64,000 bases of DNA from the NCBI GenBank assembly GCA_036268875.1, contig DATATI010000091.1, positions 13,513 through 77,512 on the forward strand, read 5' to 3'. A program made the position numbers and the translations under genes. This DNA is from Polyangia bacterium (GTDB taxonomy: Bacteria > Myxococcota_A > Polyangia > Fen-1088). A model generated the notes under the pieces. It made no database searches. It worked only from the letters and a program-made list of their open reading frames with translations, and was not told the DNA's origin. Below are positions 6,172 to 39,706 of the stretch, one piece after another. Numbering within the stretch: the stretch's first letter is position 1; each line of letters opens with the position of its first letter.

Positions 6172-6194
6172 ATGAAATGACGGGAGGTCAGCCG

Positions 6195-6521: not shown

Positions 6522-6677
6522 ATCGCCTCTGACTCCCGTTCAATAGCGTTGACCCGGCCCCGGCGCCGAAGGAAAATGAAGGGGACGCGCCGATAGGGAA
6601 ATTGGCTGGCGCGCGCCAGGCTTGCTACGATTTTCGTGCCTGCCTGGCCGCGCCGCTCTGCTCCCGAGGAGTCCTCA

Positions 6678-22659: not shown

Positions 22660-24294
22660 ATGGATCTGAAAACGATGCGGGACAAAGCTCCGGCTTCTGT
22701 TCGGGCGTGGCGACGGCGAACCATTTTGGCGGCGACGTTGATCGCCGCGGGCGTGGCGACGGCGACGGCGCCGGCCCCGGCCCGCGCGCAGGCGGCGCCC
22801 AACCAGGCCGTCGTCGATCGACTGGTGCAGATGAACCAGAAGGCGCTGGACGACTACGACACGCTGGAGTTTGACTCGGCCAAACGGAGGCTGCTGGAAG
22901 CGCTGGTGATCGGGAAGAAGGCGGGCCTGGACAATCATCCGGTGCTGGCCCGCACCTACGTGCACCTGGGCGCGGTGTATCTCACCGGATACAAGGATCG
23001 GCAGAAGAGCCTGCAGAGCTTTATTCGCGCGCTGGAGATCGATCCCAGCATCACCATTCAAAAGAGCATGCTGTCGAGCGAGCTGGCCGACGTCTTCGCC
23101 CAGGCCACCCGGCAAGCCAAGCCCCGGGCCGCCGCCGCGCCGCCCCCGCCGCCTCCGCCGAAGCCCGCGCCGGTTGAGACCCCGAAGGCGGTCGTCGCGC
23201 CGCCACCGCCGCGTCCAGCACCGGCGACCCAGGCCCACCGGGGAACGCTGCCCGTCGAGGGCGAGGTGCCGCCGCCCCCGCTGCCTGCCAAAGCGTCGGG
23301 GAAAAACCAGGACAGCGATTCAGAGGAGCCGGATCTCCCGGTGCACATCAACGCTCTCGATTGTCCGGTCAACGATGAGACGCCGCCGGAAAAAAACGTG
23401 GCGGTACGCTGCGCGGTGGCGCCCGAGCTGGGCGCCACCAGCGTGACCTTGCTTTACCGCGTACCCGGCTCCGAGGACTTCGTCGAGTCGCCGATGAAGA
23501 AGACGCCCAAGGGATGGTTCGTCGGCCGCATCCCCAAGAAGGCGGTCAGCGGCAAGGCGGTGCAGTTCTATTTCGAAGCGCGCGACCGCGCCGGCAAAGC
23601 CCTCGCCTCCAACGGGCGCGGTGACAGCCCGAACCTGATCTTGATTCGCGAACACGCCGACGGCGACAGCGCTGACGGTGACGACGAGGGCCGTCGCCCC
23701 GAAGTGGAAGAAAATCCTTTGGAGGATACGCGCGACGTCCCGTCGCAATTCGGCCGCCGCCGGTGGTGGCTCGGCCTGATGGCTGGCTCGGGCATCGGGT
23801 ATGCGGGCGGCGACGGTCCGGAAGCGCGCACAGAATTGAGGGGCGTGTTCTTGCCCGGCATCGCCTTCTCGTCGCTCGGTCACCTGGCGCCCGAGATAGG
23901 CCTGCAGCTTGGCGCGCACCTGGCGCTGTCGCTGCAGGGCCGCAATCAATACATCCCGCAAGCAAAGAAGTACGAACGCTACGCCGCCACCGGGGCGCAG
24001 TCGGTGTTGCTGCGTGTCCTGCTGATGACCGGTCAACACCGCGTGCGGGCTTACGGCGCCGCGATGGTGGGCGGCGGCGAAGGCTTTCGACTGGTGATCT
24101 ATCCTGACCCGCAGGATCGCAACTTCAAAGACACCGTGCGCGGCGGCCCCGGCCTGGCGGGGCTGGGCGCCGGCGTCACCGTCGACGTCACCTCCGCGTT
24201 CTCGCTGGTGCTGGAGCTCAACGGCCTGGTCGGGTTTCCGCATTTTTCCGCCGTCGCCGACGGCCACGCCGGCTTCCAGGTGAATTTCAACTGA
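22660..24294 (+). CDS. Secreted (RRR signal) protein with TPR-like N-domain, Pro-rich linker and C-terminal beta-strand-rich domain ending in F (outer-membrane-like)
   Basis: Signal peptide, alternating hydrophobic C-terminus ...AGFQVNFN. Confidence 0.55.
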   Translation: MDLKTMRDKAPASVRAWRRRTILAATLIAAGVATATAPAPARAQAAPNQAVVDRLVQMNQKALDDYDTLEFDSAKRRLLEALVIGKKAGLDNHPVLARTYVHLGAVYLTGYKDRQKSLQSFIRALEIDPSITIQKSMLSSELADVFAQATRQAKPRAAAAPPPPPPPKPAPVETPKAVVAPPPPRPAPATQAHRGTLPVEGEVPPPPLPAKASGKNQDSDSEEPDLPVHINALDCPVNDETPPEKNVAVRCAVAPELGATSVTLLYRVPGSEDFVESPMKKTPKGWFVGRIPKKAVSGKAVQFYFEARDRAGKALASNGRGDSPNLILIREHADGDSADGDDEGRRPEVEENPLEDTRDVPSQFGRRRWWLGLMAGSGIGYAGGDGPEARTELRGVFLPGIAFSSLGHLAPEIGLQLGAHLALSLQGRNQYIPQAKKYERYAATGAQSVLLRVLLMTGQHRVRAYGAAMVGGGEGFRLVIYPDPQDRNFKDTVRGGPGLAGLGAGVTVDVTSAFSLVLELNGLVGFPHFSAVADGHAGFQVNFN

Positions 24295-25546
24295 GCGCGG
24301 CCAGCGCGGCGGCGGCGCTGGCGGGACGGCGAGCGGGATCGGGCTCGGTCAACTGCGCGATCAGCGCGGCCAGGCGGCGACCGTCGAGGGTCAGCGTGGC
24401 CAGGGCCTCGGGGTTCAACGTGGCGGGCCGGTAGATGCCGGTGACCAGATCGGCTTGACCACGCAGCGGCACGCCGGTCAGCACCTGCCACAGGATGGCG
24501 CCGGCGGCGAACAGATCAGTCGCGGGCGAGGCGCCGGCGCCCTGAAATTGTTCGGGCGCCAGATAAAGCGGCGTGCCGGCCGGCGCTTCCTCGCGGCCGG
24601 CGCGCGGGGCGTTCTCCTCGCGGCCGGGGGCAAGCTGGGCGATGCCAAAGTCCGCCAGCACCACCTGTCCGGGCGCGCGCAAAAGTAGATTCGACGGCTT
24701 CAGATCGCCGTGAACCACGCCCTGGCCGTGCACGTAGACCAGCGCCCCCAGCAAGCTGCGCGCGGTGCTCGCGATCTCCGCCGCGTCGAGCGCCGGCTGG
24801 GCGCGCAGGCGGGCGCGCAGCGTGCCGCCGGCCAGGTATTCCATCGACAGGGTGCGCGTCGGTTCGTCGAGATCGTAGATGGCGATCACGCCGGGATGGC
24901 GCAGGGCCGCGGCCAGGCGCGCTTCGGCGAAGAAGCGCCGTCGCATTTCTGACCGCGCCGGCGCCGCCAGCTGCGGGTGCAGCACCTTCAGCGCCACTGA
25001 GATCCCCAACATCTCGTCACGCGCCAGATAGACCGCCGACGTCGCCCCCCGGCCAAGCTCGCGCAGCAGGCGATAGCGCAAAGTCTCGACACCCTCGGGC
25101 GAGATCAGCGTCGCGGCCTCGCCGCCGACGGGCAGGTCGGCTTCGGCTTGCGGGCGCAAGGCACGCAGGCGGGCGCGCGCCTGGGGATCGTCGACGTCGT
25201 CGGCCAGCACCCGCTCCCAGCGCACCGCCGCCCGGCCCAGCTGACCTTCCGCCTCGTCCAGCTCGGCCAGCGTGCGGTTGGCCTGGCGGGCCGGCTCGTC
25301 GGCGAAGGTGCCGGGGCGATCCAGCGCCGTCAGCTGCCGGCGCGCCGCCGCCGCGTCGCCGGTCTGAAACAAGAGGCGACCCAGGCGCAACCGATTGGGC
25401 GCGTCGTCGGGATGCCCATCGACGTGGGCCCGCAGCGCCGCCGCCGCCGCCCCCAGATCGCCATGGCGTTCCAGTCGATCGGCAGCCCGCAACGGGTCTT
25501 CCGGCGTGGCCGTTGATCCATCGCGCCGCGAAAAAGCCGAGGCCAT
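24287..25546 (-). CDS. Ser/Thr protein kinase with N-terminal TPR region
   Basis: GRGATSAVY..ALKVL..HGDLKPSNLL..DFGIAQ..PLYLAPEQ. Confidence 0.85.
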   Translation of the reverse strand: MASAFSRRDGSTATPEDPLRAADRLERHGDLGAAAAALRAHVDGHPDDAPNRLRLGRLLFQTGDAAAARRQLTALDRPGTFADEPARQANRTLAELDEAEGQLGRAAVRWERVLADDVDDPQARARLRALRPQAEADLPVGGEAATLISPEGVETLRYRLLRELGRGATSAVYLARDEMLGISVALKVLHPQLAAPARSEMRRRFFAEARLAAALRHPGVIAIYDLDEPTRTLSMEYLAGGTLRARLRAQPALDAAEIASTARSLLGALVYVHGQGVVHGDLKPSNLLLRAPGQVVLADFGIAQLAPGREENAPRAGREEAPAGTPLYLAPEQFQGAGASPATDLFAAGAILWQVLTGVPLRGQADLVTGIYRPATLNPEALATLTLDGRRLAALIAQLTEPDPARRPASAAAALAALS

Positions 25547-26793
25547 CAGATCACCTCGAAGCGCAACGTCGGCGCGGTTGTCGCGGCGCCGGCCGGCCGC
25601 ACCTCGATGACGTCGCCGTGCAACAGATCGCAGCCGGCGCCGATCAGTTGCCCATCGACGCGCACCGCGACCTCGGCCGCGCGTCCGAGGCGCGCCACGC
25701 CGCTCGCAAATCCGATCGACAGGCCGGCCGCTTCGGCGAGCAACCGATCAAGCGGCAGCGGCCCGTCGCCGACCACCGCCAGCAACGCCCGATCGAGACC
25801 GGCGCCGCCCGTCAGCACCGCCGCGCCGTCGGCGTCGACGCTGAAGCGCAACGTGCACGTCGCGCCCAGCGACAGCTCGCCGTCGCCGTGCAGGGCCAGG
25901 GCCGCCGATACCAGCGCGCCGCCCAGGCGCACACCCGAACGCGAGCCGGCGTCCTCGATGGTCAGCGCGCCATCGCGGCGGGCCAGCAAGGCGTGGCGGC
26001 GCGACACGCCCGGATCGCGCAGCGGGATCTCTGCCGCCGGATCGCGTCCCAGCAGCGCCGGCGTGGCGGCGAAACGGACGCTGCGTCCGTCGGGCAAGCG
26101 AAGGGTGACGCCGCGGCCGCGGCAAAGCCGACTGTCCAGCCGATGCCCGAGCTCCCGCGCGCTGGCCGCCTCGGCGGTTCCTTCGGAGATGGCGGCCGCG
26201 GCGCTGACAGCGGCCAGGCGTTCGCCCGCGCCCAGCAACGTCTCGAACCGGCGCATGGCATCGACCGCCGTGGTCCGCGCGTGCTGCCGTCGCTCGATGC
26301 GGGCCAAAGCTTCTTCCATCTGCTCTATGTCGCCCAGGGCGGCGAAGGCGTCGGCGGCGTGGGTGTCGTCGCCCAACTCCTCGAAAAGGCCGGCCGCGCG
26401 CCGGTGCTCGGCGGCGGCGAACAGCAGCGTGGCGGCCAGGCGGACCGCGCGCTTGTCGACCTCGCTGTCCAGCGGCCTGCGCGTGAAGGTCAGCAGCGCG
26501 TTGGCGGCGGCGCAGCGGGGCGCGCGCAGCTCGCGATCGGCCGCCGCCGCTTCGCGCTTGCCGCGCCGACGGGTGCGCGCGACATCGTGAAAGGCCTGGG
26601 CCGCCGCCGTCAGATCCGCCAGCCCCACGCGCGGATTGGTCTGCGGCGTACCGGCCATCTTGAAAAGGAAGGTGATGGCCTCCCAGTTCTGCTGGGTGGC
26701 CAATCGTTCGACGAATCCACCGACGTCGTGCGCCTCCGCCGCTTGCAGGATCTCGCTTAGCGAGATGGTGCGTTCATCGGTGGGTCCCGGCAT
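25546..26793 (-). CDS. FHA-domain protein
   Basis: LGRDPAAEIPLRDPGVSRRHALLARRDGALTIEDAGSRSGVRLGG FHA signature; stop overlaps kinase start. Confidence 0.75.
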   Translation of the reverse strand: MPGPTDERTISLSEILQAAEAHDVGGFVERLATQQNWEAITFLFKMAGTPQTNPRVGLADLTAAAQAFHDVARTRRRGKREAAAADRELRAPRCAAANALLTFTRRPLDSEVDKRAVRLAATLLFAAAEHRRAAGLFEELGDDTHAADAFAALGDIEQMEEALARIERRQHARTTAVDAMRRFETLLGAGERLAAVSAAAAISEGTAEAASARELGHRLDSRLCRGRGVTLRLPDGRSVRFAATPALLGRDPAAEIPLRDPGVSRRHALLARRDGALTIEDAGSRSGVRLGGALVSAALALHGDGELSLGATCTLRFSVDADGAAVLTGGAGLDRALLAVVGDGPLPLDRLLAEAAGLSIGFASGVARLGRAAEVAVRVDGQLIGAGCDLLHGDVIEVRPAGAATTAPTLRFEVI

Positions 26794-28351
26794 GGAGTAT
26801 CATTTCATTATGCTCCAGCGTGTCGCGCTCGGGCAGGTGCGCTTCAACCTGCCGGGCCTGTCCACCGACGGGCGGGGCGTGGCCACTGGCCGGCAGTGCG
26901 CGATCCGGTTCGGAGCCATCGATCGGCTGGTGGCGTTCTTTCGCATCCTTTCGGCGCAGCGCAATCTGGATGATCTGCAGCCCGGCCTGCGCCTTTTGAA
27001 CGCCCGCGGCGCGGCTGGCCCGCGCGAGATGATCGTCATCCTGCCGACCGGATCGACGCACCTGGCGGACGCGATCGCGTCGGCGGCGCGCACCGCCGGC
27101 GGCCAGTGTTTCACCGGCGATTTGAAACATTTCGTGCAGTACCGCGACGGGCGCGCGCCGCTGGGCTACGACGCCGCCGAGGTGGCCACCGACCCGAGCG
27201 AAATCATTCTTTACGCCGCCGAGCAGACGGTGGCCTACCAGATCGAAAGTGAGCTGCCGTTTCCCAAGCTGCTTTTGCGGCTGCCCTTGCAGCGCCAGCA
27301 CGGCGTCCCCGCGGGGCCGCCCAGCGGCGGCCTGCTTTATGTGGTGGTGCGCCGGGGCCTGGGTCCGACGGTGGCGCAGTATCTTTACCGCGCGCAGCGG
27401 CTGGCGCCGCCCGGCGCCGGCGACGGGCGGCCTTGGCTGCGGGCCGCCGCCGCCTTGTGTGACGAGAGCAGCGACGGCAGCGCGTTTCAGCCCGGCCGAT
27501 CGTTCTGGTTGTTTCGTCTGGAAGGCCTTCCGGCGCGGATGATGGGCCTGCTGTCGTCGACGCCGGGGCTGGAACCATACGTGCCGGCGACGGACAACGT
27601 GGCCGTGGCTCTTGGCCATCGCCATCCGATTCATCTGGAGGCCTGCAAGTCCAGCTTTGCCGGCGATCGATTTTTTCTCTTCGCCGCCGGCGGGCGCGGT
27701 GTCACCGTGCTGTCTGCCCTGCCCACGCTGACCGCGCTGGAAGATCTGGTGCGCGTCGGCGGCGCCCGCGCGCAAGCGCCCGAGGTGACAGCGGCGCGCC
27801 TGGGTCCTCGTCCCGAGGTGGCCGTGCCGCTGCGGCTGGAAGCGGTCTCCGACGTCGAACGGCGGGCGGTGGCCACCTTGATTCCGTGGCGGCAGGTGTC
27901 GTGGTTGCGGCGCCTTTGTTACGCGCTGCCGGCGCCGGCGCTGCGCTCGCACCGGGTGGCCTTGCTGGATCGGGGCGTGCTGGTCCTGTCGTCGGGCGTG
28001 CTGGACGGAATTCCCTTCGGCATGTTGCTGGACAGCGCGGCGCCGGACGTGCTGGTGCCACTGGGGGCGCGGCTGCGACCGGCGGTTTCGCCGGCCCTGC
28101 TGGCGGCGAAGGTCGGCGCCAAGGACGGCGCGGTCGTCGTCTTCCCCGCGCTGGACGCCTTGCCCTTTCGCGTCCCGCCCGAAGTCATCGAGCCGCTGGA
28201 GCGACAGATCCTGGGCAGCGCCGAAGCCATCGCCGTCGACGCCGCCGAGCCGCGCCGCCACCCCACGCAAACAGTGGAGCCGGCGCCGGTGGAGATCGAA
28301 AACGACTGGCTGGGTCCCATGCCGCTGTGGGGACTGGGGCCGACGCGGTGA
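26792..28351 (+). CDS. Hypothetical protein A (519 aa, no recognisable motif); first gene of 4-gene module
   Basis: High GC3, AT-rich translation start; antisense ORF 26774..28270 is R/Q/H-rich junk. Confidence 0.6.
   Translation: MEYHFIMLQRVALGQVRFNLPGLSTDGRGVATGRQCAIRFGAIDRLVAFFRILSAQRNLDDLQPGLRLLNARGAAGPREMIVILPTGSTHLADAIASAARTAGGQCFTGDLKHFVQYRDGRAPLGYDAAEVATDPSEIILYAAEQTVAYQIESELPFPKLLLRLPLQRQHGVPAGPPSGGLLYVVVRRGLGPTVAQYLYRAQRLAPPGAGDGRPWLRAAAALCDESSDGSAFQPGRSFWLFRLEGLPARMMGLLSSTPGLEPYVPATDNVAVALGHRHPIHLEACKSSFAGDRFFLFAAGGRGVTVLSALPTLTALEDLVRVGGARAQAPEVTAARLGPRPEVAVPLRLEAVSDVERRAVATLIPWRQVSWLRRLCYALPAPALRSHRVALLDRGVLVLSSGVLDGIPFGMLLDSAAPDVLVPLGARLRPAVSPALLAAKVGAKDGAVVVFPALDALPFRVPPEVIEPLERQILGSAEAIAVDAAEPRRHPTQTVEPAPVEIENDWLGPMPLWGLGPTR
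26795..26812. promoter_or_regulatory. AT-rich island (gagtatcatttcattatg) at the junction of divergent genes; TATCAT -10-like box 6 nt before ATG 26810
   Basis: Only AT-rich stretch in ~2 kb of >70 % GC sequence. Confidence 0.3.
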
Positions 28352-29679
28352 CCGTCGACGCCGCTCACCTTCTGGCGGCTGGTGGCGGCGGCGAACTGGT
28401 CGACGCGGCCACCGACTTACCCGGCGGCGACCAAGGCGGCTCCGGCGCGGCCACCGACGACGCCGGCGCCGATCGCGCGCTGCTTCGATTCGTCACTCGG
28501 TTTTTGCTGCCGCTGGTGCGGGGAGGCGCGCTGCACGTCGGCCGACCGCTGGGACCGCGCCTGGTCGATCGGCTGTCGGCGCGCGTGGCCGTGGGCGGGC
28601 TGGCGTCGTCGGCCTGGTCGACGAAGGCGTTGGCGCCGGCGCCGGTGTCGTCCTCAGCATCGTCGGGTGTTCGTGGCGACGACGTGGTCGGCGCGCTGGC
28701 GGCGGGCCGTCACGCCGTGGCCTTGCGGTTGTTGTCGCGCGCGCGGGTGCCGGCGCTGGACCCGGCGACGGTGCGGCTGGGCGCGGCGCTGCACAACCTG
28801 CTGGCGCTGACCCACCCGGCGATCGAAGGCCGTGGCGCCGAGGGAAGGCAGGGCCGCATCGCCGTCGCCGCGCTGGAACTGGCCGCGCTGGGCCCGCCGC
28901 GCACCGTGGCCGAAGCGGTCGATCGTCATTCGCTGCTGGCGCGCCTGCCCGAGATCGGGCGCTCGGATCGTCTGGTTCACTATTGGCTGGGGCGCCAGGC
29001 GTTCGTTGGGCGGATGCCGCCGCGGCGGGTGACGGCGATGCCGCGTCTGCGGCAGGTGCGGGTCGAAACCTTCCGGCGTGGCTGGCTGCGCGAGATCGGG
29101 ATGCCGGTGTGCGCACGGCCGGCGTTCCTGGCCCTCAGCATCGCCAACCCGCTGGGCGAGACCGAAGATCTCTTTCGGCTGGAGCCGCCCGTCGGCTGGA
29201 GCCGCATCTTGCCGGCGCTGCGTTTTCCTGAACTGTCACGGGTAGTCGCCGGACGCGTGGTCGAGCAAGGGGTGCTGCGCGCGGGCGACGTGCTGGCGGA
29301 CGCGCTGTTTCGGTTTGCTTCGGGGCACGATCCGCCGGGCGGCGTCAGCCCCAGCGGGGCGGCCATCGCGTTCGCCATCCGTTTTTTATCGCATTGCCTG
29401 TGGCTGGATCTGCTGTTCGGCTCGCCGGCGGGCGCCGCCAGCGTCACGGCTGATCGTCCGCCGGGCCTAGATCTGGCGGTGATGCTGGTGGCGGCGCAGC
29501 GGATCTCGTCGGCGCTGGTTTGGCCGCCCGACGTGGCGCCCACCAGCGATCTCGGCCGGCGCTTCATCGATCGCATGGCGGCCATGGCGTCGCAGGTGCG
29601 CGAACGGCGCTCGCCGCGTTTTGACACCGCGGTGGGCGTGGCCAGCTTGGCCGCGCCGTCGCTGCGGTCGCCGCCGTGA
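28348..29679 (+). CDS. Hypothetical protein B (444 aa, GTG start overlapping stop of A: GTGA)
   Basis: Frame-1 ORF; only start compatible with upstream gene is GTG 28348. Confidence 0.5.
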   Translation: MTVDAAHLLAAGGGGELVDAATDLPGGDQGGSGAATDDAGADRALLRFVTRFLLPLVRGGALHVGRPLGPRLVDRLSARVAVGGLASSAWSTKALAPAPVSSSASSGVRGDDVVGALAAGRHAVALRLLSRARVPALDPATVRLGAALHNLLALTHPAIEGRGAEGRQGRIAVAALELAALGPPRTVAEAVDRHSLLARLPEIGRSDRLVHYWLGRQAFVGRMPPRRVTAMPRLRQVRVETFRRGWLREIGMPVCARPAFLALSIANPLGETEDLFRLEPPVGWSRILPALRFPELSRVVAGRVVEQGVLRAGDVLADALFRFASGHDPPGGVSPSGAAIAFAIRFLSHCLWLDLLFGSPAGAASVTADRPPGLDLAVMLVAAQRISSALVWPPDVAPTSDLGRRFIDRMAAMASQVRERRSPRFDTAVGVASLAAPSLRSPP

Positions 29680-29748
29680 ACGACGCGCGCTGCGATCGGA
29701 GGCGCGCGCCGGCCGCGCCGTCGGCATTCGTTATATAGTGAAGGCTCG

Positions 29749-30966
29749 ATGTCCGTCAGCGAAACAGCCCCCGGACGCATCCAATCGGTGCTGGATGCTG
29801 ACGCCTTGCGCGTGGGGCACAAGCTGCGCGAGGTGGGGCGCGAGCTGGACCAGCGTTACCTGGACAAGTCGGAGCTGGTGCGCCTGCTGCTGGTCACGCT
29901 GGTGGCCGGCGAGCACATGCTGATCGTCGGCCCGCCCGGCACCGCCAAATCGGCGCTGGTTCGGCACCTGGCGCGCCTCATCGATGCCCGCTATTTCGAA
30001 TATCTGCTGACCCGGTTCTCCGAGCCGAACGAGATCTTCGGCCCGGTGGACATCAAGGCTTTCCGCGAGGGCACCTACGTGCGGCGGGTGGAGGCGATGC
30101 TGCCGGAGGCGGAGATCGTTTTTCTCGACGAGATCTTCAAGTCGAACTCGGCCATCTTGAATGCGCTGCTGAGCATCCTGAACGAACGACGTTTCTTCAC
30201 CGGCAGCGTCAGCCTGAAGGTGCCGCTGTGCTCGCTGTTCGGGGCGACCAACGAAGTCCCGAACGACGACGCGCTGGGCGCGGTGTTCGATCGATTCTTG
30301 GTCCGGGCGCTGTCGGACAATCTGGACAGCTTTCATTTTCACGGGCTGGTCGAGCGCGGCATCCGCGGCGAGATCGCCGAGATCAGCGGCGCCGACGAGA
30401 TCCGCCGCCCGCTGCTGGCGCTGGCCGACATCCGCAAGCTGCAGACCCGTCTTGGTCAGTATCTGCAGTTCCCCGAAGAATGGATGGCCCGCTATAAAGG
30501 ATTCATCTTTCAGATCCGTTCGGAGGGCGTGACCATCAGCGATCGGCGGGTGGTCAAGCTGCTGAAGCTGTTCGCCGCCAGCGCCATCATCGACGGCCGC
30601 GCCACCGTCAACGACGGCGATTTTTTCGTTCTCAAGCACGTGTGGAACAGCGTCGATCAGGTGCCGATCCTGGCCGACGTCGTCGGGCCGGCGCTGGACA
30701 AGCACCACCGCGAGCACCCGGACGAAAGGCGCAGCGGCGCCACCGCAGCCGACCTTGACGGCATCCTGCGCGAGCTCGGGGTGATACGCGGCCTCTTGCT
30801 GGGCGGCGAGCCGCTGTCCGACGTGCAGCTTTTCTCGCAGCTGCGCAACCTGCAGGAGATCCGTTCGGCGCTGCAGGCGCTGGGCACTGACACCGCCAAG
30901 CAGATGGCCGGCGAGGTGGACAAGCTTTTGGAAGGCGTCTTCGAATCGAACCAATGGACCGGATGA
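29749..30966 (+). CDS. MoxR-family AAA+ ATPase, RavA-like (no LARA domain)
   Basis: Walker A GPPGTAKS; YFEYLLTRFSEPNEIFGPVDI and EAEIVFLDEIFKSNSAILNALLSILNERRF align with E. coli RavA. Confidence 0.85.
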   Translation: MSVSETAPGRIQSVLDADALRVGHKLREVGRELDQRYLDKSELVRLLLVTLVAGEHMLIVGPPGTAKSALVRHLARLIDARYFEYLLTRFSEPNEIFGPVDIKAFREGTYVRRVEAMLPEAEIVFLDEIFKSNSAILNALLSILNERRFFTGSVSLKVPLCSLFGATNEVPNDDALGAVFDRFLVRALSDNLDSFHFHGLVERGIRGEIAEISGADEIRRPLLALADIRKLQTRLGQYLQFPEEWMARYKGFIFQIRSEGVTISDRRVVKLLKLFAASAIIDGRATVNDGDFFVLKHVWNSVDQVPILADVVGPALDKHHREHPDERRSGATAADLDGILRELGVIRGLLLGGEPLSDVQLFSQLRNLQEIRSALQALGTDTAKQMAGEVDKLLEGVFESNQWTG

Positions 30967-32249
30967 AACGAAACCGCCGCGGACCCGATCGCGACGACAC
31001 CTTTGCCCCGTCACCCAAGCCCGTTCGCCAGCGCCGGGCGTTTTCCACGCTGGGCGGGCCGATCGAGCTCGGCGGCGCCAGCGCCGAGGCACGCCTGCTG
31101 GGAAGATTGCTGGACGTCGATCCCGGTTTGGCGCGCGCGCTGACCCACGGCTTTCACAGCTATGCCGGGCGCATGCACCCGTCGATCGCCCGCGGCGCCG
31201 TCGACGCTTTCAGCGCGGTGGGCGACACGGTGGTCGATCCGTTCTGCGGCAGCGGCACCGTGCTGGTCGAGGCGATGGGTCTCGGCCGGCGCGCGCTGGG
31301 CGTCGACGCCAGCCCCCTCGGCGTGGCCATCGCCGGCGTGCGCACCACCACCCTGGGTGAGGACGGCCGGGCGAAGCTGCAAGAGGAGGCGGTGCGCATC
31401 GCCGAGTCGTCGGGCGAGCAAGCGCGCAAACGCCAGCGGCCCGCCATGCCGGCCTGGTCGCAAAACGAGCTGTCGCGTTTTCACCCGCACGTTCTGCTGG
31501 AGCTTTTGGGCCTGCGCGCGCTGGTGATGGAGACCGACGCCGACGATGACGTGGGCCGCGCCTTGCGCCTGTGCCTGTCGTCGATCCTGGTCAAGTTCAT
31601 GAAGGCCGGCCCCGAGGCTCCGCGCGACGGCGAGACCAAGCGCATCGCCCGCGGGGTGCCGTCGCGCATGTTCGCCGATCGCGCGGCCGAGCTGGCGCAG
31701 GGCCTGGCCGCGCTGGAGCGGCGCACGCCGCCAGGGACGCCGGTGGCGCAGGCGCGCCTCGGGGACGCGCGCGATCTGTCCGCGATCAAACGCGGCTCCG
31801 TCAAGCTGGTGGTGTCGTCGCCGCCTTACGCCGGCACCTACGATTACGCCGCCCAGCACGACGTGCGGTTCACCTGGCTGGATCTGCCGCGCAAGCTGTT
31901 CCGAAAGACTCAGCTGGGCGCGCGCCACGCCAGCCTGGGCGCCGATCCCGACGCCTGGCGCGCCGGCCAGAAACAGTGGATCGCCGAGGTGGCGCGCGTG
32001 CTGGCGCCGGGCGGTCACGCCTTGTTGGTGGTGGGCGACGGCGTGGTGGGCGTGGAGGCCGAAGACGCGCCCGACGCCGTGGCCAGCGCCGCCGCGCCGG
32101 TGGGCCTCGAGCCGCTGGCGCGCGCCTCGCAGACGCGGCCGGTGATCGACAACCGTCTGCAGGCGATCTTCGCCAGCCGCCCGCGCCGCGAGCACTTGTT
32201 GCTGCTGCGTCGGTCGGGCGGCCGCGACGGCGTATCGTCGTCGCCCTGA
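30963..32249 (+). CDS. SAM-dependent amino-methyltransferase (UPF0020 / N6-adenine-N4-cytosine-like); ATGA overlap with ATPase gene (alt start 30954)
   Basis: Motif I VVDPFCGSGTVLVEA, motif IV VVSSPPYAGTYDY. Confidence 0.8.
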   Translation: MKRNRRGPDRDDTFAPSPKPVRQRRAFSTLGGPIELGGASAEARLLGRLLDVDPGLARALTHGFHSYAGRMHPSIARGAVDAFSAVGDTVVDPFCGSGTVLVEAMGLGRRALGVDASPLGVAIAGVRTTTLGEDGRAKLQEEAVRIAESSGEQARKRQRPAMPAWSQNELSRFHPHVLLELLGLRALVMETDADDDVGRALRLCLSSILVKFMKAGPEAPRDGETKRIARGVPSRMFADRAAELAQGLAALERRTPPGTPVAQARLGDARDLSAIKRGSVKLVVSSPPYAGTYDYAAQHDVRFTWLDLPRKLFRKTQLGARHASLGADPDAWRAGQKQWIAEVARVLAPGGHALLVVGDGVVGVEAEDAPDAVASAAAPVGLEPLARASQTRPVIDNRLQAIFASRPRREHLLLLRRSGGRDGVSSSP

Positions 32250-32292: not shown

Positions 32293-32523
32293 ATGGCCAA
32301 ATCACCATGTCCGCTTTCGAAGACGCAATTTCTCGAAAAGGCCGAGTCGGTGAAGATCACCATCGGCAACACGGAGATCGTCGCTGACAAGCGCGAGTTC
32401 TCCACCGGGTCCTTCGGTTGGTACTACAACGGCAAGACCACCGTCACCGTCGACGGCAAACCGCTGTCGGTGCAGGTTGGATTGAACCTGACCGTGGTGG
32501 GCAGCAAGGAAGCAGAAAGGTAG
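32293..32523 (+). CDS. Small (76 aa) Lys-rich hypothetical protein, predicted all-beta, lower GC
   Basis: Clean ORF with decent codon bias in an otherwise intergenic gap. Confidence 0.45.
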   Translation: MAKSPCPLSKTQFLEKAESVKITIGNTEIVADKREFSTGSFGWYYNGKTTVTVDGKPLSVQVGLNLTVVGSKEAER

Positions 32524-32669: not shown

Positions 32670-34862
32670 ATGTCTTCACTTGGACTCTGCGTTTCGTCGA
32701 AGGCTGCCCGCGCGTGGTTGGCGGTTTTGGTTTCGTCTTCATTGATTGGGATCGGCTGCGGCGGATCGTCGGGCAATCCCACCGACGGCGCGGTCGACCG
32801 GGTGAAAGACGGCGGCGGCAGCGGCGGCGCTGATGCACGCGGCAGCGGCGGCAGCGGCGGTGGAACCGGCGGCGGGTTCGGCAGCGGCGGCGCGTCCGGG
32901 ACCGGCGGCGGATTCGGCAGCGGCGGCGCGTCCGGGACCGGCGGCGCCAGCGTCGACGCGCCCGTCGACCACGCCGATGCCACCCTCGACATGCCGGCGA
33001 TGGATGCGGTGAAGCCGGTCGACGTTTCGGTCGATCACGGGCCGGATATGGCCATGGACACCACCGTTCCCAAGGACGTGGCGGCCGATGTGCCGCGCGA
33101 CGTTCCGGTGGACATGCCGCCTCGTTGCGCCGCCGGCGCGGCCTGCACGCTGCGCGGGGCGCCGGCCATCTGCAAGGCCAACGCCTGCGCTGCTTGCGTC
33201 GACACCACCGACGACGGCGCCTGCGTGACGGCGTACGGCGCGGCCCACGTCTGCGTGCGCGCCCGTTGCATTTCTGGCGATTGCCACACCTCGGCCACCT
33301 GCACGGCGGGCGAGATCTGCGGCGCCCGCACGGCCAACACCTGCGGCGCGTGCACGTCGGACGCGCAGTGCCGCAACGACACGCGCTATGGTTCGGCGTT
33401 CGTTTGCTTCACCACGCCGGGACAGGCCAACACCGGCAAGTGCGTGGCGGCGATGTGCACCGGCGCCGGCGTCGCCTGCGGCGCCAACAGCAGCGACGTC
33501 TGTTGCAACGCCAGCTGCGTGACCGGCAACTGCTGCACCGACGACGACTGCCGCAACAACCCCAAGTTCGGAGCCGGCTTTGCTTGCGGCACCAACCACA
33601 CCTGCTCGCGCTGCGACGGCGTCACCGGCAATCACTACTTCGTTGATCCCGCCGGCGGCAACGATTCCACCGCCACGGGCAGCGGACAGAGCGCCAATGC
33701 CGCCGTCCCCAGTTGCAGCTTCAAGACCATCACCCGCGCCCTGCAGATCATCGGCAACAACGCGCCCGTCGGCACCACCGTCACGGTGGTGGGAAAGACT
33801 GGCGCGACCACCAGCTTGCAGACGGCGGCGGGCCCGGCTGGCTCGCCGGCGCCGGAAGATCTGCCGATCACCGTCGGGACCAACGTGAAGATCACCACCT
33901 CGGGTGGCGCGATCTCGCTGGTGCTGCCGGCGGGAGCGGACGGATTCAAGCTGGCCGGCAACGGCGCCTCGCTGACACCGACGGCGACGGCGGCGCTGAT
34001 CATCGACGGATCGACCAGCACGTCAGGCTCGGGGATCGTGGTCGCGCCGGGCGCGGCGGGCACGGTCTCGATCAGCGACCTCACGGTGCAGAACACCGGC
34101 GATGACGGCATCACCATCAGCGAAGGCACCCTGAACATCGGCGCCGGCGTGGTGGTCAAGGGCGTCGGCTTGCCGTCGGAAACCGGGCGGCGCAGCGGCC
34201 TCAACGTCGCCGGCGGCACGGTGAAGATCGCCGTGCCGAACGGTCAGACGCAGACGTCGTTCAACGCGAACACGGAGAACGGCATCCGCGTCACCGTTTT
34301 GGGCACGCTGACCATCAACGGCGTCGCCACCGGCGAGGGCACGGTGGTGGCCAAGTCGAACACGCTGGCCAACATCTTCATCAATCACACCCCGGGGGCG
34401 GCGCCCGCGGTCAGCAGCATCGACGGCGTCATCGCCACCGGCAGCACCAACGGCGACGGCGGCTTCCAGATCCTGGGCGGGTCACGCGTGAAGCTCAGAA
34501 ACAGCATGGTGCTGGGCAACGCCAAGGCGGGCGTGGCCATCGGCGCGGCGGACGCCACGGCGGCGGGCAGCGCCTTGGCGGGGATCGATCTCGGCACGGC
34601 GCAGGATCCGGGGCGGAACGTGTTGCAGGCGGCGTTGGGGTCGAACTCGAACACCGGCGCAGGGCTGTGTGTTCAGCTTGACGCTGATGCCGGCAACCAG
34701 ACCCTAGCCGCCGCCGGCAACACCTTCGCCGGTCCGCGCGACTGCGCCGCCGTCGCGCCCGGGGCCATCACCAAAGGCATGGACTGCGGCGCCCGCGTCG
34801 ATGAGGCCGTGGTGCCGGCCACCGGAACCACCGTCACTGTCACAATCAGCAACTGCCAGTAA
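32670..34862 (+). CDS. Lipoprotein with Gly-rich linker, Cys-rich domain and right-handed parallel beta-helix (pectate-lyase-like) domain
   Basis: Lipobox LIGIGC; AGGAG SD; beta-helix rungs ..GDDGITISEGTLNIGAGVVV.. Confidence 0.7.
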   Translation: MSSLGLCVSSKAARAWLAVLVSSSLIGIGCGGSSGNPTDGAVDRVKDGGGSGGADARGSGGSGGGTGGGFGSGGASGTGGGFGSGGASGTGGASVDAPVDHADATLDMPAMDAVKPVDVSVDHGPDMAMDTTVPKDVAADVPRDVPVDMPPRCAAGAACTLRGAPAICKANACAACVDTTDDGACVTAYGAAHVCVRARCISGDCHTSATCTAGEICGARTANTCGACTSDAQCRNDTRYGSAFVCFTTPGQANTGKCVAAMCTGAGVACGANSSDVCCNASCVTGNCCTDDDCRNNPKFGAGFACGTNHTCSRCDGVTGNHYFVDPAGGNDSTATGSGQSANAAVPSCSFKTITRALQIIGNNAPVGTTVTVVGKTGATTSLQTAAGPAGSPAPEDLPITVGTNVKITTSGGAISLVLPAGADGFKLAGNGASLTPTATAALIIDGSTSTSGSGIVVAPGAAGTVSISDLTVQNTGDDGITISEGTLNIGAGVVVKGVGLPSETGRRSGLNVAGGTVKIAVPNGQTQTSFNANTENGIRVTVLGTLTINGVATGEGTVVAKSNTLANIFINHTPGAAPAVSSIDGVIATGSTNGDGGFQILGGSRVKLRNSMVLGNAKAGVAIGAADATAAGSALAGIDLGTAQDPGRNVLQAALGSNSNTGAGLCVQLDADAGNQTLAAAGNTFAGPRDCAAVAPGAITKGMDCGARVDEAVVPATGTTVTVTISNCQ
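32865..32948 (+). repeat. Tandem 36-bp duplication (x2.3) encoding TGGGFGSGGASG in Gly-rich linker
   Basis: Units 32865-32900 and 32901-32936 differ at one base. Confidence 0.7.
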
Positions 34863-34928: not shown

Positions 34929-36344
34929 GTGACGGTCACGGACGCCCGCGGCGACGACGGCGAGACGGAGCTCGGGCGCCAGCTCGCCACGCTGGCGCTG
35001 TCATGTGTGCGGCCCTCGGGATCGATGGAGGCCATCGCGGCGGTGTCGTGGTGGAACATGCTGGCGCGCCTGGGACTGCAGCTGCCGCTGGTGGTGGTGC
35101 ACGACCTCGGCTTGTTGCTGTCGCGCGGCCGGGAAGGGCGAGGGCGCGAGGTGGTGCGCCCCCCGGGCGCCGCGGCGGTGGTGGGGCGGTACCACGCGCT
35201 GCTGACGACGGTGGCCGCGTCGGAGATCATCGACGAACTCGGGGCGGCGCCGCTGCACGACGACGCGGTGGCGGTGATCCTGGCGCGGGTCCTGGGCGAC
35301 GTGTACCTGCGCTGGCCGGCGCGGCCGCGCCTGGGGCCGCGCAGCGACATCGATCAATTGCCGTCGGCGTCGCCGCTTTACGACCGCGACCGGGCGGCAC
35401 CCGGCGGCGAACGGGATGCCGGGTGGGCACTGCCGTTTCTGCAGCGGCTGTGCGATCTGGAACGGCCGGTGCTGGCCCGCTTTGATCAGATTGATGCGGC
35501 GGCGCTGCGCCTTCTGGGGTTGTTCTCCGTCGACGCCGGGCTGGCCGACCTGGCCGATCTCTACCAGTTGGTGGCTACGCCGGGCACCGCCGACGTGGTG
35601 GATTTTTCACTGCAACTGCTGCCGTCCCTGCTGGAGACCAAGCGGCGGCCGGCGGCGCAGCGGTTCTCCATCGACGGTTACGCGTCGGTCGAACGGCGCG
35701 GCAGCCTGGACGCGCTTTTGCCCGGAGAGCTGGCCCACGACGACGACAGCTTCGCCCTGAAGGCGCTGTCCGACGATCTGCTGTTTTACGGCCACGAGCG
35801 CCAGCAAGAGACCGGACGCAAGCTGCACTATGTGCTGGTCGACGCCAGCGCATCGATGCGCGGGACGCGGCAGGTCTTCGCCCGCGGGCTGGCCCTGGCC
35901 CTGTGCAAGAAAGTTTCGCTGATGGGCGGCGAGGTGTGGGTGCGCTTCTTCGACAGCCGCCTTTATGATCGACTGGACATCGGCGGCGCCGGCCGCCGCG
36001 ATCTGCCGCGGTTTCTGTGCTTTCGTTCCGAACGCGGGCGCAATTACACCCGGGTGTTCTCCGACCTGGCGGTCGAGGTGACGCGGTTGCGGCGCGAGCG
36101 CGGGCGCGACATCGCGCTGACCTTCATCACCCACGCGGAATGCCACATCCCGCTGCCCATCGTCGAAGCGCTGGCGCGCGAGGCGTATCTCTACGGAATC
36201 TTCGTGCAGCCGTCGAAGCCGCTGGAGCTGGAATACCTGCCCAAGCTGCACCGCCATCAGGTGGTCACCGCCGATTCGCTGTCGCGTTCGGCGGACAAGC
36301 GGCGCCGGGCCCTGGACATCGTCGAGGACGCGGCGATCGGCTGA
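34929..36344 (+). CDS. VWA-domain protein, ViaA-like architecture (N-domain + C-terminal VWA with MIDAS VLVDASASM)
   Basis: DxSxS MIDAS at ~aa 305; GTG start; stop overlaps next gene (TGATG). Confidence 0.75.
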   Translation: MTVTDARGDDGETELGRQLATLALSCVRPSGSMEAIAAVSWWNMLARLGLQLPLVVVHDLGLLLSRGREGRGREVVRPPGAAAVVGRYHALLTTVAASEIIDELGAAPLHDDAVAVILARVLGDVYLRWPARPRLGPRSDIDQLPSASPLYDRDRAAPGGERDAGWALPFLQRLCDLERPVLARFDQIDAAALRLLGLFSVDAGLADLADLYQLVATPGTADVVDFSLQLLPSLLETKRRPAAQRFSIDGYASVERRGSLDALLPGELAHDDDSFALKALSDDLLFYGHERQQETGRKLHYVLVDASASMRGTRQVFARGLALALCKKVSLMGGEVWVRFFDSRLYDRLDIGGAGRRDLPRFLCFRSERGRNYTRVFSDLAVEVTRLRRERGRDIALTFITHAECHIPLPIVEALAREAYLYGIFVQPSKPLELEYLPKLHRHQVVTADSLSRSADKRRRALDIVEDAAIG

Positions 36345-38158
36345 TGGCCACGCGCGACGAGATCGACACCAAGGATCGCGCCGACCGAGCGCTGCGCGGC
36401 GGGCGGGCGCGCGAGGCGCTGGGCCTTTACAGCACACTGCTCGGGCGCGTGCAGGTCTTCGAGGCGGGGCTTTACGACAGCTGGCTGGAGGGCGCGCTGG
36501 CGGCGTACCAGGCGCTGCGCCGCGGGCGCGAGGCGGGTTATGTGCTGCTGGCCTTGCGCCGGTTCGCCGAGGCCCAGCGGCATTTTCCCGTCGACGTCTA
36601 CCCGCACGAATGGGCGCTGTGCGCGTCCAAGCTGGGGCGCCACGGCGAGGCGGCGCGCGTGCTCAGCGACGCCGGCCACCCGGCGCTGGCAGCGGTCGAG
36701 CTGGAATCGTCGGGCGCACACACGGCAGCCCGCCTCGAGTGGGAGCGCGTGCTGCGCGATCCGCGCCTGACCGGCCAGCCGTATGAAACCGCGCTGGCGC
36801 ACTTCAACCTGGGAGAGGCCCTGCTGCGCACGTACGAACGTGCCGGCGCCGAGCGCGCGCTGACCATCACCCAGCGCCTGCTGGAAGAGCTGGCCGACGA
36901 GTTCGAGACCCGTGGCGAGCGCGAGCGCGCCTTCGACTGCTACAGCATCCTTTTGCGCCTGGGTCGGGACACCGGATCCTTCGAGAACGTCGCCGAGGGT
37001 TACTTGAACGGCATCCGCATCCTGGCCAGCGACGATCAAAAATTCTATGTCCTGCAGTACTACGAAGACTTTCTGGCCTTCGCGGTCGAACAGAAGGAAT
37101 GGTACGCCGCCGCCACCCTGGCCCGCGAGGCGGCGGATTTCAGCCTGAAAGCCGGGCTGGTCTACGATCGGCATTACCTGCAGCGCGCCGCCACGCTGTG
37201 GGGGGAGACCGCGCGCCACAACGAAGCCAGCGGCGGGCCACCCGAACTGTCGGAGAATGCCTTGCACGCCGGCATCGACGCCGGCACCTCGGCCGGCGAT
37301 CTGTCTTTGTGCGGACGCCTGTACACGCAGCTGGCGGCGTTGCCGCTGACGCCGAAGAAACGCGCCCGCTACCGCCTGCTGGCCCAGCGGTACGGCAGCG
37401 TCACGGTCGAAGCGCCGCCGGCGCCGGCGCTGCCGGAATATCTGCGGCGGTCCGGCGCCTATCAGGACGTCTGGCGGCAGGATCTGATCGAATGGGAGCT
37501 GGACGGCGATCCCAAGTCGGTGCTGGCACGCCTGGTGGTCGATCGCACCGACCACGCGCGCTTCTCGCGTCTGGCATTGCGCGCGCTGTTGCTGTGCGCG
37601 GCCCCCGGCGATGACCAGGCGGCCGACGATCCCGTCGCCATCAGCGAGGTGGCGATGGCCTTGGGCCGCATCCAGGTCTACGAAGTGCTGCGCCCGCTGG
37701 AGCGGCTTTACTTGCACCCCTCGTCGCAGGTGCGCGCCGCCGTGATGGGCGGCGTGGGCCAGGTGTATTGCAAGCGCAGCTTCGTGCTGGTGCGCAAGGG
37801 CCTTGGCGATCCCGCGCCGCTGGTGCAGGACGAAGCCCTGCGCGCCTTGCGCGGCCTGCGTTTCCGCGATGGCTTCGATCCGCTGGTGCGCATCTTCCGC
37901 GAATCCACCGACGAGCGCGTGCGCGTGGCGGCGCTGGAGACCATCGCTGACATCGGTTCGTTGGAAGCCGGCCTTTTCTTGCTGGACGTCATGCGCCATG
38001 AGACCGGCGTCCTGCGCAACACCGCCGAGGCCCGCCTGACCGTCTTCTCGGGCGACGACATCACCGCCACAGTCCGTCAGTACCTGGACCGCGAGACCGG
38101 CGAGCGCCGCGAGAGCCTGCAAGCGATCTTGAAGTCGCTGACCACGTCCAGCGTGTGA
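36344..38158 (+). CDS. TPR/HEAT-repeat protein (PBS-lyase-like HEAT repeats at C-terminus)
   Basis: Start ATG 36344 (MATRDEID) overlapping upstream stop; longer track ORF from 36017 is out-of-context. Confidence 0.6.
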   Translation: MATRDEIDTKDRADRALRGGRAREALGLYSTLLGRVQVFEAGLYDSWLEGALAAYQALRRGREAGYVLLALRRFAEAQRHFPVDVYPHEWALCASKLGRHGEAARVLSDAGHPALAAVELESSGAHTAARLEWERVLRDPRLTGQPYETALAHFNLGEALLRTYERAGAERALTITQRLLEELADEFETRGERERAFDCYSILLRLGRDTGSFENVAEGYLNGIRILASDDQKFYVLQYYEDFLAFAVEQKEWYAAATLAREAADFSLKAGLVYDRHYLQRAATLWGETARHNEASGGPPELSENALHAGIDAGTSAGDLSLCGRLYTQLAALPLTPKKRARYRLLAQRYGSVTVEAPPAPALPEYLRRSGAYQDVWRQDLIEWELDGDPKSVLARLVVDRTDHARFSRLALRALLLCAAPGDDQAADDPVAISEVAMALGRIQVYEVLRPLERLYLHPSSQVRAAVMGGVGQVYCKRSFVLVRKGLGDPAPLVQDEALRALRGLRFRDGFDPLVRIFRESTDERVRVAALETIADIGSLEAGLFLLDVMRHETGVLRNTAEARLTVFSGDDITATVRQYLDRETGERRESLQAILKSLTTSSV

Positions 38159-38502: not shown

Positions 38503-39537
38503 TCAGGGCGGCGCGCCGGCGGCGGCGTCGGCGGCGATCGTCGCGCTGACGCGCGCGGCGGCGGTCGAATCGTCGACGATGATTCCCACCTCGCGGTTGT
38601 GGTCCATCGACGCGGCGGTGAGGTTGACCGAACCGACGTACAGCCGCCGGTGGTCCGCGACGATGGCCTTGGCGTGTACGGCCGGCGCACCAACGGTCCG
38701 CACGCGCACGCCGGCCGCGACCAGCCGGGCCAGCGCCGATTTGGTGGCCGACGATTGATCGGCGGCCGGTGCCACCACCGTGAGCGCCACGCCGGCCGCC
38801 GTCGCGTTGGCCAGCGCAGCGACCACCCCGGCATCGGAGAGTTCTTCCATTTCCACGTCGAGCTGGCTCTGCGCGCCGTCGATCAAGGCCAGCAGTGACG
38901 CCCGCGCGTTCTCCGGCGCGCTCAGCAGGCGCCCGCCGGGCGCCGCCGTCGCTGTGTCGTTCCGATCGGCGGCGATCATTGCCTGCGCCGCGGCGACGTC
39001 GGCGGGTGCTTGGTCCACGACGGCGAACTCCCGGTTGGTGGTCAGTCCGGCGTGGGTGAGGTTGCAGGTCATCAGCACCGCTTCCTGGCCGTCGACGACC
39101 AGCAGCTTGGTGTGGGTCAAGGCGAAGCGCGCGCTCGACCAAACGACGTCGACACCGGCCGCTTGCAAGCGATCGTGCGCGCCGCGGTTGGCGGTCTCGG
39201 CGCCGAAGGGATGAGGCTCTATCACCACCGTGACGGCGCGGCCGGCGGTGGCGGCGTCGACCAGCGCGGCGATCACCTGATCGTCGGTCAGCAGATAGAT
39301 CTCCAGCGCCACTGTGCGGGTGGCGGCCCGAATCAGCGTCGCGATCGGCGGTGGGCCGTCGTCGGGTTGCACCCGCAGCTCGACGGGGAGACCAGACCCA
39401 TTGCCGGCGGCGCCTGAAGTGTCGAATGACGGCGGCGCGCACGACGTTCCCGCGACGGCGAACGCCAACCAGCCGATCGCACCCAAGGCCGGTACAAGCG
39501 CAGCCAACCGCGACGGTGGACGCAGGAAGTGAATCAC
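38503..39537 (-). CDS. Phospholipase D-family protein with two HKD motifs (cardiolipin-synthase-like), secreted/lipoprotein
   Basis: LTHTKLLVVD...N and VHAKAIVAD...N; GTG 39537 preferred over 39681 (upstream part low GC3). Confidence 0.7.
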   Translation of the reverse strand: MIHFLRPPSRLAALVPALGAIGWLAFAVAGTSCAPPSFDTSGAAGNGSGLPVELRVQPDDGPPPIATLIRAATRTVALEIYLLTDDQVIAALVDAATAGRAVTVVIEPHPFGAETANRGAHDRLQAAGVDVVWSSARFALTHTKLLVVDGQEAVLMTCNLTHAGLTTNREFAVVDQAPADVAAAQAMIAADRNDTATAAPGGRLLSAPENARASLLALIDGAQSQLDVEMEELSDAGVVAALANATAAGVALTVVAPAADQSSATKSALARLVAAGVRVRTVGAPAVHAKAIVADHRRLYVGSVNLTAASMDHNREVGIIVDDSTAAARVSATIAADAAAGAPP

Positions 39538-39706
39538 GCCAGTCTCTTCGGCCGCCGCTGCCCGCGGGTTGCGCGCCGGCTGCTTGAAATTGGCGTGATC
39601 ACGGTTTGATCCGCGCTGAATCTCTGCCCCCTTGCCGGCGTTGCGAATCTCCATCGATCGGATAAGGTGATCGACCGTCACGAACCCTGGACTTGACCTT
39701 GCTCCG

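Follow-up and report, generated by a model that had tools for sequence, protein, structure and literature searches.

Gene content of the locus

The 64,000-nucleotide stretch analyzed here (the window; contig DATATI010000091.1 of a Polyangia bacterium, numbered from its first letter) carries a gene cluster built around a MoxR-class AAA+ ATPase and a candidate vWA partner. A preliminary description of this DNA had singled out four open reading frames (ORFs) at 26792-32249 and had proposed that two large orphan proteins (A and B), a RavA-like ATPase and an amino-methyltransferase (MTase) make up an undescribed four-gene system. These genes are real and conserved, and they belong to a larger cluster of a kind predicted in 2020. 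We propose, with moderate confidence, that the cluster is an FtsH-less variant of the MoxR-vWA ternary systems, which were computationally predicted and read as conflict systems by Kaur, Burroughs, Iyer and Aravind (2020, eLife 9:e52696; PMC7159879), that the four genes are its upstream half, and that the MTase is separable from it and not part of its core.

The four ORFs are co-oriented, tightly packed and coding, as the preliminary description held. Their third-position GC of 0.84-0.89 is that of real genes of this genome (the window has a G+C content of ~69%), and because A, B, the ATPase and the MTase all have many homologues, we regard all four as real genes. The junctions also read as claimed: A and B overlap by GTGA at 28348-28351, a 69-bp gap (29680-29748) containing TTATATAGTGAAGG separates B from the ATPase gene, and the ATPase and MTase genes overlap by ATGA at 30963-30966.

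We compared the window with related loci and contigs (numbered L002-L167; proteins of the individual families carry P-numbers, such as P0072 and P0492). The A-B-MoxR-MTase order recurs in dozens of Polyangia contigs, in line with the earlier expectation that these genes are conserved together. The conserved unit extends beyond 32249, from a kinase gene at 24287 to the end of a gene for a tetratricopeptide-repeat (TPR)/HEAT-repeat protein at 38158; thus the ORFs of the module first described are there, and its limits are not those of the conserved unit. In relatives, a kinase gene and an FHA-domain gene on the opposite strand are followed by A, B, bpMoxR, the MTase, a ~470-aa protein and a ~600-aa HEAT protein. 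The ~470-aa protein is the candidate vWA component (ivWA), and in relatives it and the HEAT protein are encoded directly after the MTase; in the window, a lineage-specific insertion displaces this pair by 2.7 kb. The claim that the ATPase is paired with a methyltransferase instead of a vWA protein was therefore probably wrong. The conserved core consists of five cytoplasmic proteins, namely A, B, bpMoxR, ivWA and the TPR/HEAT protein, and the divergent FHA and Ser/Thr kinase genes accompany A-B. No convincing transmembrane segment was found in the cluster proteins.

The MoxR ATPase and its candidate vWA partner

The ATPase (405 aa; 29749-30966, + strand) has GPPGTAKS as Walker A (residue 61) and IVFLDE as Walker B. 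Its best Pfam match is PF20030, bpMoxR ("MoxR domain in the MoxR-vWA-beta-propeller ternary systems"; 2.3e-73), and it also matches AAA_5 and AAA_lid_8. The GxxxTAKS variant of the P-loop is typical of FtsH- and beta-propeller-containing MoxR-vWA ternary systems (PMC7159879). The closeness to Escherichia coli RavA that had been noted earlier was borne out, as residues 25-309 match RavA structures at E = 9.4e-44. Against the NCBIfam RavA model (NF010054) the protein scores 177.5 bits, with an equivalog cut-off of 681, and its alignment spans only positions 9-297 of the 498 in the profile; the C-terminal part of RavA has no counterpart in the ATPase (405 vs 498 aa). Because it falls far under the equivalog cut-off and the AAA+ part alone aligns, the ATPase is not a RavA orthologue, and we rejected membership in the RavA-ViaA system since that cut-off is missed.

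The candidate partner is a 471-aa protein (34929-36344, + strand) with a helical N-terminal region followed by a predicted, divergent vWA domain of the ivWA type. A search of 1.84 billion representatives put 523 members in its family, whose consensus includes LVDASASMRG, which contains the DxSxS motif of a metal ion-dependent adhesion site (MIDAS); the window copy reads D305-A-S-A-S309, and D305 and S309 are near-invariant in the family. Pfam PF19997, ivWA ("vWA domain found in the FtsH ternary systems"), is matched by 23 of the 62 family members scanned (best 2.6e-6), and others match VWA_CoxE, VWA_2, CobT_C or ivWA-helical_N. Furthermore, the family hidden Markov model (HMM) matches, at 2.6e-58, the WD40-ivWA gene of L166, an FtsH ternary operon that holds P0492 and encodes a Cdc48/FtsH-type double AAA+ protein, bpMoxR, fvmX2, fvmX3, WD40-ivWA, and proteins of 213 and 644 aa. 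The family-level matches, the MIDAS motif and the operon homology together strongly indicate, on sequence evidence, that the 471-aa protein is a divergent ivWA-type vWA protein with an intact MIDAS motif.

In distant relatives of this protein (P0492, P0510, P0507, P0499, P0506 and P0503), the ivWA-type module is combined with WD40 propellers, FGE-sulfatase, Lcl_C (lectin-like) or beta-helix domains, architectures that resemble the sensor-type ones discussed for MoxR-vWA conflict systems. One such fusion is a Blastocatellia protein of 1196 aa.

The TPR/HEAT-repeat protein (604 aa; 36344-38158, + strand) matches HEAT_2 at 2.2e-12, and TPR matches appear in an orthologue. Its gene is joined to the ivWA gene by a 1-nt stop/start overlap (TGATG). 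Among the partners of ivWA it is the most persistent, following ivWA in nearly all loci with enough downstream sequence, distant MoxR-less loci included.

We also considered as cognate partner a classical vWA gene (PF00092) that lies between B and MoxR in two contigs (L025 7574-8719; L043 7574-8665). It was rejected on account of its lipoprotein signal (LAACS) and Cys-rich C-terminus, and its product is probably secreted. In an hhalign comparison of the 471-aa family with these two proteins, only the 10-residue MIDAS motif aligned.

Genes A and B

Gene A lies at 26810-28351 (+ strand) and encodes 513 aa from the ATG at 26810, or 519 aa from 26792. The later start is the more probable one: it is where the consensus of the family sets in, and 42 orthologues all have M7 and L8 (519-aa numbering; M7 is encoded by that ATG). 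Neither A nor B of the window matched anything in direct Pfam, NCBIfam or PADLOC scans (A reached E = 0.024 on bpX2). Orthologues of A exceed the Pfam cut-offs both for fvmX7 (3.6e-14 and 1.9e-10; 53.1 and 40.8 bits vs 24) and for bpX2 (25.9 and 40.7 bits vs 23.6), the bpX2 E-values being 2.9e-10 for the L162 orthologue and 1e-5 for P0072. The family HMM matches the 644-aa gene of the canonical FtsH ternary operon L166 at 2.3e-22 and the fvmX7 gene of L167 (annotated PF20005) at 5.6e-54. Sequence comparison thus makes A a member of the fvmX7/bpX2 accessory family. The fvmX7, bpMoxR and ivWA families were themselves defined from gene co-occurrence (PMC7159879).

Gene B (443 aa; 28348-29679, + strand) encodes a mostly helical, lineage-restricted protein with a conserved core of ~380 aa. 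Its first ~45 residues are of low complexity, are common to the closest relatives only, and have a predicted local distance difference test (pLDDT) score below 50 in the model. The rest of the model is confident and all-alpha, with no match among solved structures. B keeps its place after A, also in the distant systems.

Thus, of the two proteins first described as orphans, A now has a family and B stands as a novel helical protein. The proposed fold comparison of the two models in search of an effector gave none: B matched no solved structure, and the AlphaFold model of A is too poor (pLDDT 57.8) for fold assignment, showing only several ferredoxin/ACT-like alpha+beta units.

The kinase, the FHA protein and the chromosomal setting

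The kinase gene (24287-25546, - strand) encodes a TPR and Ser/Thr protein kinase of 419 aa (Pfam Pkinase 1e-38; TPR_19). It is of the non-RD type, with VALK, HGD, DFG and APE motifs present. The FHA-domain protein (415 aa; 25546-26793, - strand) matches Pfam FHA at 1.2e-10 over residues 248-302, and its gene is divergent from A with an intergenic length near zero. This divergent placement beside A is found in 21 listed loci and in the distant L145 and L162. The kinase is present where FHA, A and B are present and absent where they are absent.

The surroundings are conserved as well. From valS through a kinase, Big_5, OmpA and a 551-aa gene to the cluster, synteny is kept across contigs at 55-70% protein identity. 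In the distant L163 (GC 49%), the cluster lies beside rpsP-trmD. No mobile-element signature or variable effector was found at the cluster, and Pfam and PADLOC scans of the neighboring genes showed no nuclease, peptidase or TIR domain. A tblastn search with the double AAA+ protein of L166 found no FtsH-type AAA+ gene in the window or the other 167 loci, nor did Pfam scans of the neighbors, and NEFF1, radical SAM, Ubl-conjugation and caspase Pfam domains are absent from the genes between 17 and 48 kb of the window.

The methyltransferase

The MTase (428 aa; 30963-32249, + strand) matches Pfam N6_N4_Mtase (PF01555) at 1.2e-14. The motifs I and IV recognized in the preliminary description are confirmed as FCGSG at residue 94 and SPPY at residue 286, and both are invariant in 20 orthologues. 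Motifs X and I are N-terminal and motif IV is C-terminal, a circular permutation of the order in beta-class N4/N6 DNA methyltransferases; accordingly, PDB 2zie, the best match to the profile, aligns with its motifs permuted, followed by N4-cytosine methyltransferases. PADLOC Type II methyltransferase models match down to 7.9e-24, several of them over both motifs. By sequence, then, the closest enzymes to the MTase are the DNA N4/N6 amino-methyltransferases, a fold family that would favor DNA over a protein substrate. An RNA methyltransferase of the RlmL, Trm11 or Trm14 type (the first two raised earlier as a finding that would undo the proposal) was rejected because scores lie far under the cut-offs (TIGR01177, 34.3 vs 316.6 bits; Trm14, 19.4 vs 280; RlmKL, 15.9 vs 466) and only the motif I region is aligned. 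The other part of that concern, namely that the enzyme would be present in relatives generally, was borne out in spirit, as the gene is widely conserved.

We surveyed the MTase in one genome per GTDB species (80 loci, 72 informative). MoxR lies directly upstream in 17 of the 72, at MTase identities of 55-96%, and is not upstream in the remaining 55, at identities of 34-58%; these relatives have the MTase without the ATPase, A or B. The stand-alone gene occurs in Sorangium cellulosum So ce56, Minicystis rosea, Labilithrix luteola, Polyangium, Nannocystis and several Planctomycetota, and in the distant genomes it has no conserved partner, its neighbors being unrelated housekeeping genes. Some genomes retain the synteny of the window, with OmpA and a homologue of p544 (a ~550-aa gene, 22660-24294 in the window) followed directly by the MTase, and have no kinase, FHA, A, B, MoxR, ivWA or HEAT gene. 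In a neighbor-joining tree of the MTase, stand-alone copies are nested inside the MoxR-linked clade, and therefore the MTase was kept when the system was lost. On two or more occasions within this clade, MoxR was lost and the MTase kept (L014; L017-L020 and L026).

A converse survey, anchored on ivWA in metagenome contigs, gave 33 informative loci, with both MoxR and the MTase in 20 and neither in 11. Distant systems that have no MTase read FHA followed by A-B-MoxR-ivWA (L162), MoxR-ivWA-HEAT (L157, L159, L161 and L163), or fvmX7, B-like, bpMoxR, ivWA and HEAT with kinase and FHA genes ~4.5 kb upstream (L167). Because each is found without the other, the MTase and the system are separable in both directions. 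In other words, the MTase is a lineage-wide, stand-alone DNA-(N4/N6)-MTase-like gene rather than a core component, and it sits between MoxR and ivWA in one Polyangia sub-lineage only, where its translation is coupled to that of MoxR.

Comparison with known systems

The cluster shares much with the FtsH ternary systems: its MoxR ATPase has the GxxxTAKS P-loop, it encodes an accessory protein of the fvmX7 family and further helical proteins that have no counterpart elsewhere, and it occurs in Myxococcota (formerly Deltaproteobacteria). The candidate vWA protein, divergent and helical at its N-terminus (ivWA/ivWA-helical_N), would be a further common feature, and its profile, like that of A, directly matches a gene of the L166 operon. 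The cluster differs in that there is no FtsH/Cdc48-type double AAA+ gene in the window or related loci, and genes for NEFF1, radical SAM, Ubl-conjugation or caspase effectors are lacking as well. It differs also in its TPR/HEAT protein in the third-component position, in the linked FHA and kinase genes, and in the MTase embedded in one sub-lineage. Because the defining FtsH component and the effectors are absent, we do not file the cluster as a member of the FtsH ternary systems. Literature searches turned up no experimental study of FtsH-containing MoxR-vWA ternary systems.

With the beta-propeller ternary systems the cluster has in common a bpMoxR ATPase (2.3e-73), bpX2 in the A family, a lack of conventional effectors, and TPR-type repeats in the third component. 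In those systems the vWA component is strictly fused to a C-terminal beta-propeller (PMC7159879), whereas the 471-aa protein and 62 relatives of similar length have no propeller matches, and an N-terminal WD40 domain appears only in distant, longer relatives. The third component of the cluster, in contrast, consists of HEAT repeats, with no propeller and no membrane-spanning N-terminus.

The resemblance to E. coli RavA-ViaA lies in the AAA+ module (9.4e-44) and in its pairing with a candidate vWA protein that bears a MIDAS motif, in one operon. The ATPase is nevertheless shorter and non-orthologous, the candidate partner is of a different family, and A, B, HEAT, FHA and kinase genes are extra.

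The MTase resembles orphan and Type II N4/N6 DNA methyltransferases (TTHA0409, PDB 2zie; M.RsrI; CcrM) in its FxGxG motif I, its SPPY motif IV and a motif-X region before motif I. Orphan methyltransferases are typically conserved as stand-alone genes across a lineage, and so is the MTase of the window. Unlike the beta-class enzymes it is permuted, with a ~190-residue insert between motifs I and IV, and within its clade it is operonic with MoxR.

Lastly, MADS-like matches in PADLOC are weak (mad8, 3.5e-4 and 18 bits; mad2, 1.5e-10; mad6, 2.7e-50). The kinase scores 135.8 bits against MADS6 (cut-off 460), the best value on PglW is 82 (cut-off 990), no PglZ or PglX was found, and A, B, ivWA and HEAT have no PADLOC match. 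Membership in MADS or BREX was rejected because the scores are under the model thresholds and PglZ and PglX are missing.

Discussion

The preliminary description had the right conceptual class in view when it pointed to MoxR-vWA conflict systems. We propose that the cluster defines a compact, FtsH-less and effector-less version of this class, made up of fvmX7, B, bpMoxR, ivWA and TPR/HEAT with linked FHA and kinase genes. What we observed directly is the gene content, the family assignments, the co-occurrence and the separability of the MTase; we infer every step of the mechanism that follows, and the biological role, taking the mechanism by analogy from established MoxR-vWA pairs (RavA-ViaA, CoxD-CoxE and others; PMC7159879). 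Hypothetically, the MIDAS site of the vWA protein would hold a client peptide or acidic residue, and the resulting complex would be remodeled by a MoxR hexamer at the expense of ATP. The TPR/HEAT protein may serve as the platform or scaffold and A-B as adaptors, and the kinase together with the phospho-threonine-binding FHA protein could act as a gate on assembly. We consider a vertically inherited regulatory or assembly role somewhat more likely than a mobile anti-phage system, because the chromosomal synteny is conserved, there is no mobile-element signature, and no effector was found. The candidate vWA partner is now located, and vertical conservation in soil Polyangia makes it easier to test what the smallest working core of the class is. 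The MTase, as a lineage-wide orphan enzyme, is of interest for its conservation by itself.

Several observations weigh against this reading. The PF19997 matches of the 471-aa family are probably below the 35-bit gathering score of Pfam, the window protein itself has no significant match in Pfam, NCBIfam, PADLOC or the PDB, and searching the PDB with the profile of the family gave nothing genuine. Eight loci (L095, L100, L108, L151, L155, L156, L164 and L165) have ivWA-HEAT pairs with no MoxR within up to 10 kb upstream. The five-gene core is therefore not universal; in such genomes either MoxR is encoded elsewhere or the pair works alone. Promoter and terminator scans of the locus gave nothing informative. 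Kaur et al. read the whole class as conflict systems, and our preference for a housekeeping or regulatory role draws only on synteny and on the absence of recognizable effectors. Finally, wherever an informative locus of the clade has both MoxR and the MTase, the two genes are neighbors (37 of 37 loci; 17 of 17 in genomes, 20 of 20 in metagenomes), with a start/stop overlap in several, and the junction persists in L015 and L016, which have neither A/B nor an adjacent ivWA/HEAT pair. This persistent adjacency could reflect functional coupling rather than passive linkage.

The last point bears on the alternative that survives best, namely that the MTase was functionally recruited in the sub-lineage, either as a client or output of the MoxR-ivWA chaperone (in effect a kinase/FHA-gated orphan DNA methyltransferase) or as an enzyme that methylates one of the proteins of the complex. 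Of all cluster junctions, only the one between MoxR and the MTase is never broken within the clade: it is kept where ABC-transporter genes replace A/B (L004, L021 and L023), L015 and L016 retain it alone, and the MTase-ivWA junction by comparison is interrupted by inserted genes in L004, L021, L023 and the window. Across the same contigs, moreover, identity is higher for the MTase (65-80%) than for A or B (50-60%). Adjacency in one clade can nevertheless be inherited without function, the MTase has repeatedly outlived MoxR inside the clade, and outside it MoxR and the MTase are each found without the other. There is also no precedent in PMC7159879, where the words methylase and methyltransferase do not occur, and the fold family of the enzyme speaks for DNA and against a protein substrate. 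On balance we regard recruitment as unlikely, and functional coupling of MoxR and the MTase in the clade as unlikely to distinctly unlikely. In its strongest form the idea would make the two a coupled functional pair, a pairing not described so far, in which a kinase/FHA-gated, ATP-dependent MoxR-vWA switch controls genome methylation. We hold this to be distinctly unlikely; if true, it would amount to an epigenetic switch under signaling control in bacteria that lead a multicellular life and would tie AAA+ chaperone switching to DNA methylation.

A second alternative is a self-contained, NTP-dependent defense system, with the MTase marking self DNA, as in restriction-modification, BREX and MADS, and the ATPase with A and B sensing or restricting unmodified invaders. 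The prediction of the class as conflict systems (PMC7159879) would accommodate it, as would the closeness of the MTase to DNA N4/N6 methyltransferases, its ATGA overlap with MoxR and their adjacency in all 37 loci, and the weak MADS-like PADLOC matches. Yet the MTase stands alone in 55 of the 72 genomes and the system does without it in L157, L159, L161-L163 and L167. Pfam and PADLOC scans found no nuclease, helicase, phosphatase or other effector; the kinase is far below the MADS6 cut-off (135.8 vs 460 bits), and the MTase scores higher on many generic Type II models than on mad2. The locus, furthermore, lies in conserved synteny beside valS and not in a variable island. We therefore find a defense role of this form quite improbable.

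That the cluster is not one system at all, and is instead a run of unrelated genes held together by shared ancestry in a slowly rearranging region, would fit the synteny of the ~25-kb neighborhood from valS, which includes the clearly unrelated OmpA, Big_5 and other kinases, and the ivWA-HEAT pairs without MoxR in some genomes, but it is very improbable given that the same families occur in the same order in distant, differently placed loci (L167, L163 and L166), that start/stop overlaps join A-B, MoxR-MTase and ivWA-HEAT, and that co-occurrence of just this sort defined the fvmX7, bpMoxR and ivWA families.

Insertions and minor features of the locus

The element that separates the MTase from ivWA in the window consists of a gene for a Gly/Ser-rich, lipoprotein-like protein of 730 aa (32670-34862, + strand), with a signal/lipobox-like N-terminus, and a small ORF. 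The 730-aa protein has no Pfam, NCBIfam or PADLOC match. Its gene is found at this position only in the window and the nearest relative, L003, and is a lineage-specific insertion that is probably not part of the system. The small ORF (76 aa; 32293-32523, + strand; MAKSPCPLSKTQFLEK...FSTGSFGWYYNGK) lies in the 420-bp gap after the MTase, in a stretch of reduced G+C content, and has no Pfam match.

After L003, the closest MTase/MoxR relatives of the window are L004, L021 and L023, which have no kinase, FHA, A or B. In these three loci an ABC-transporter pair lies upstream of MoxR, and an MshEN-domain gene and a 323-aa gene lie between the MTase and ivWA. The two upstream genes were considered as divergent forms of A and B and rejected, being the ABC-transporter pair. 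The MTase-ivWA junction is evidently an insertion hot spot.

Two further observations concern noncoding sequence and assembly. A terminator-like scan picked out a GC-rich hairpin, GCCGGCCGCGCCGTCGGC, at 29708-29725 (+ strand) in the gap between B and MoxR, followed by ATTCGTTATA; it may be a weak attenuator or meaningless. An Rfam scan of 24-39 kb of the window gave no match. In L162, the FHA/A region appears as an apparently exact inverted duplication (1323-4277, - strand, vs 4742-7696, + strand) with identical HMM scores, most likely an assembly chimera; the A-B-MoxR-ivWA order to its right is unaffected.

Relatives carry sequence similar to the 730-aa protein (38-45%) a few kb past the HEAT gene and on the other strand. 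In L002 (19365-21506, - strand) this sequence seems to lie within a gene for a 1156-aa PLD-domain protein, and at the corresponding place the window has a shorter PLD-like gene of 392 aa (38503-39681, - strand). This suggests that a local rearrangement split or moved the 730-aa gene.

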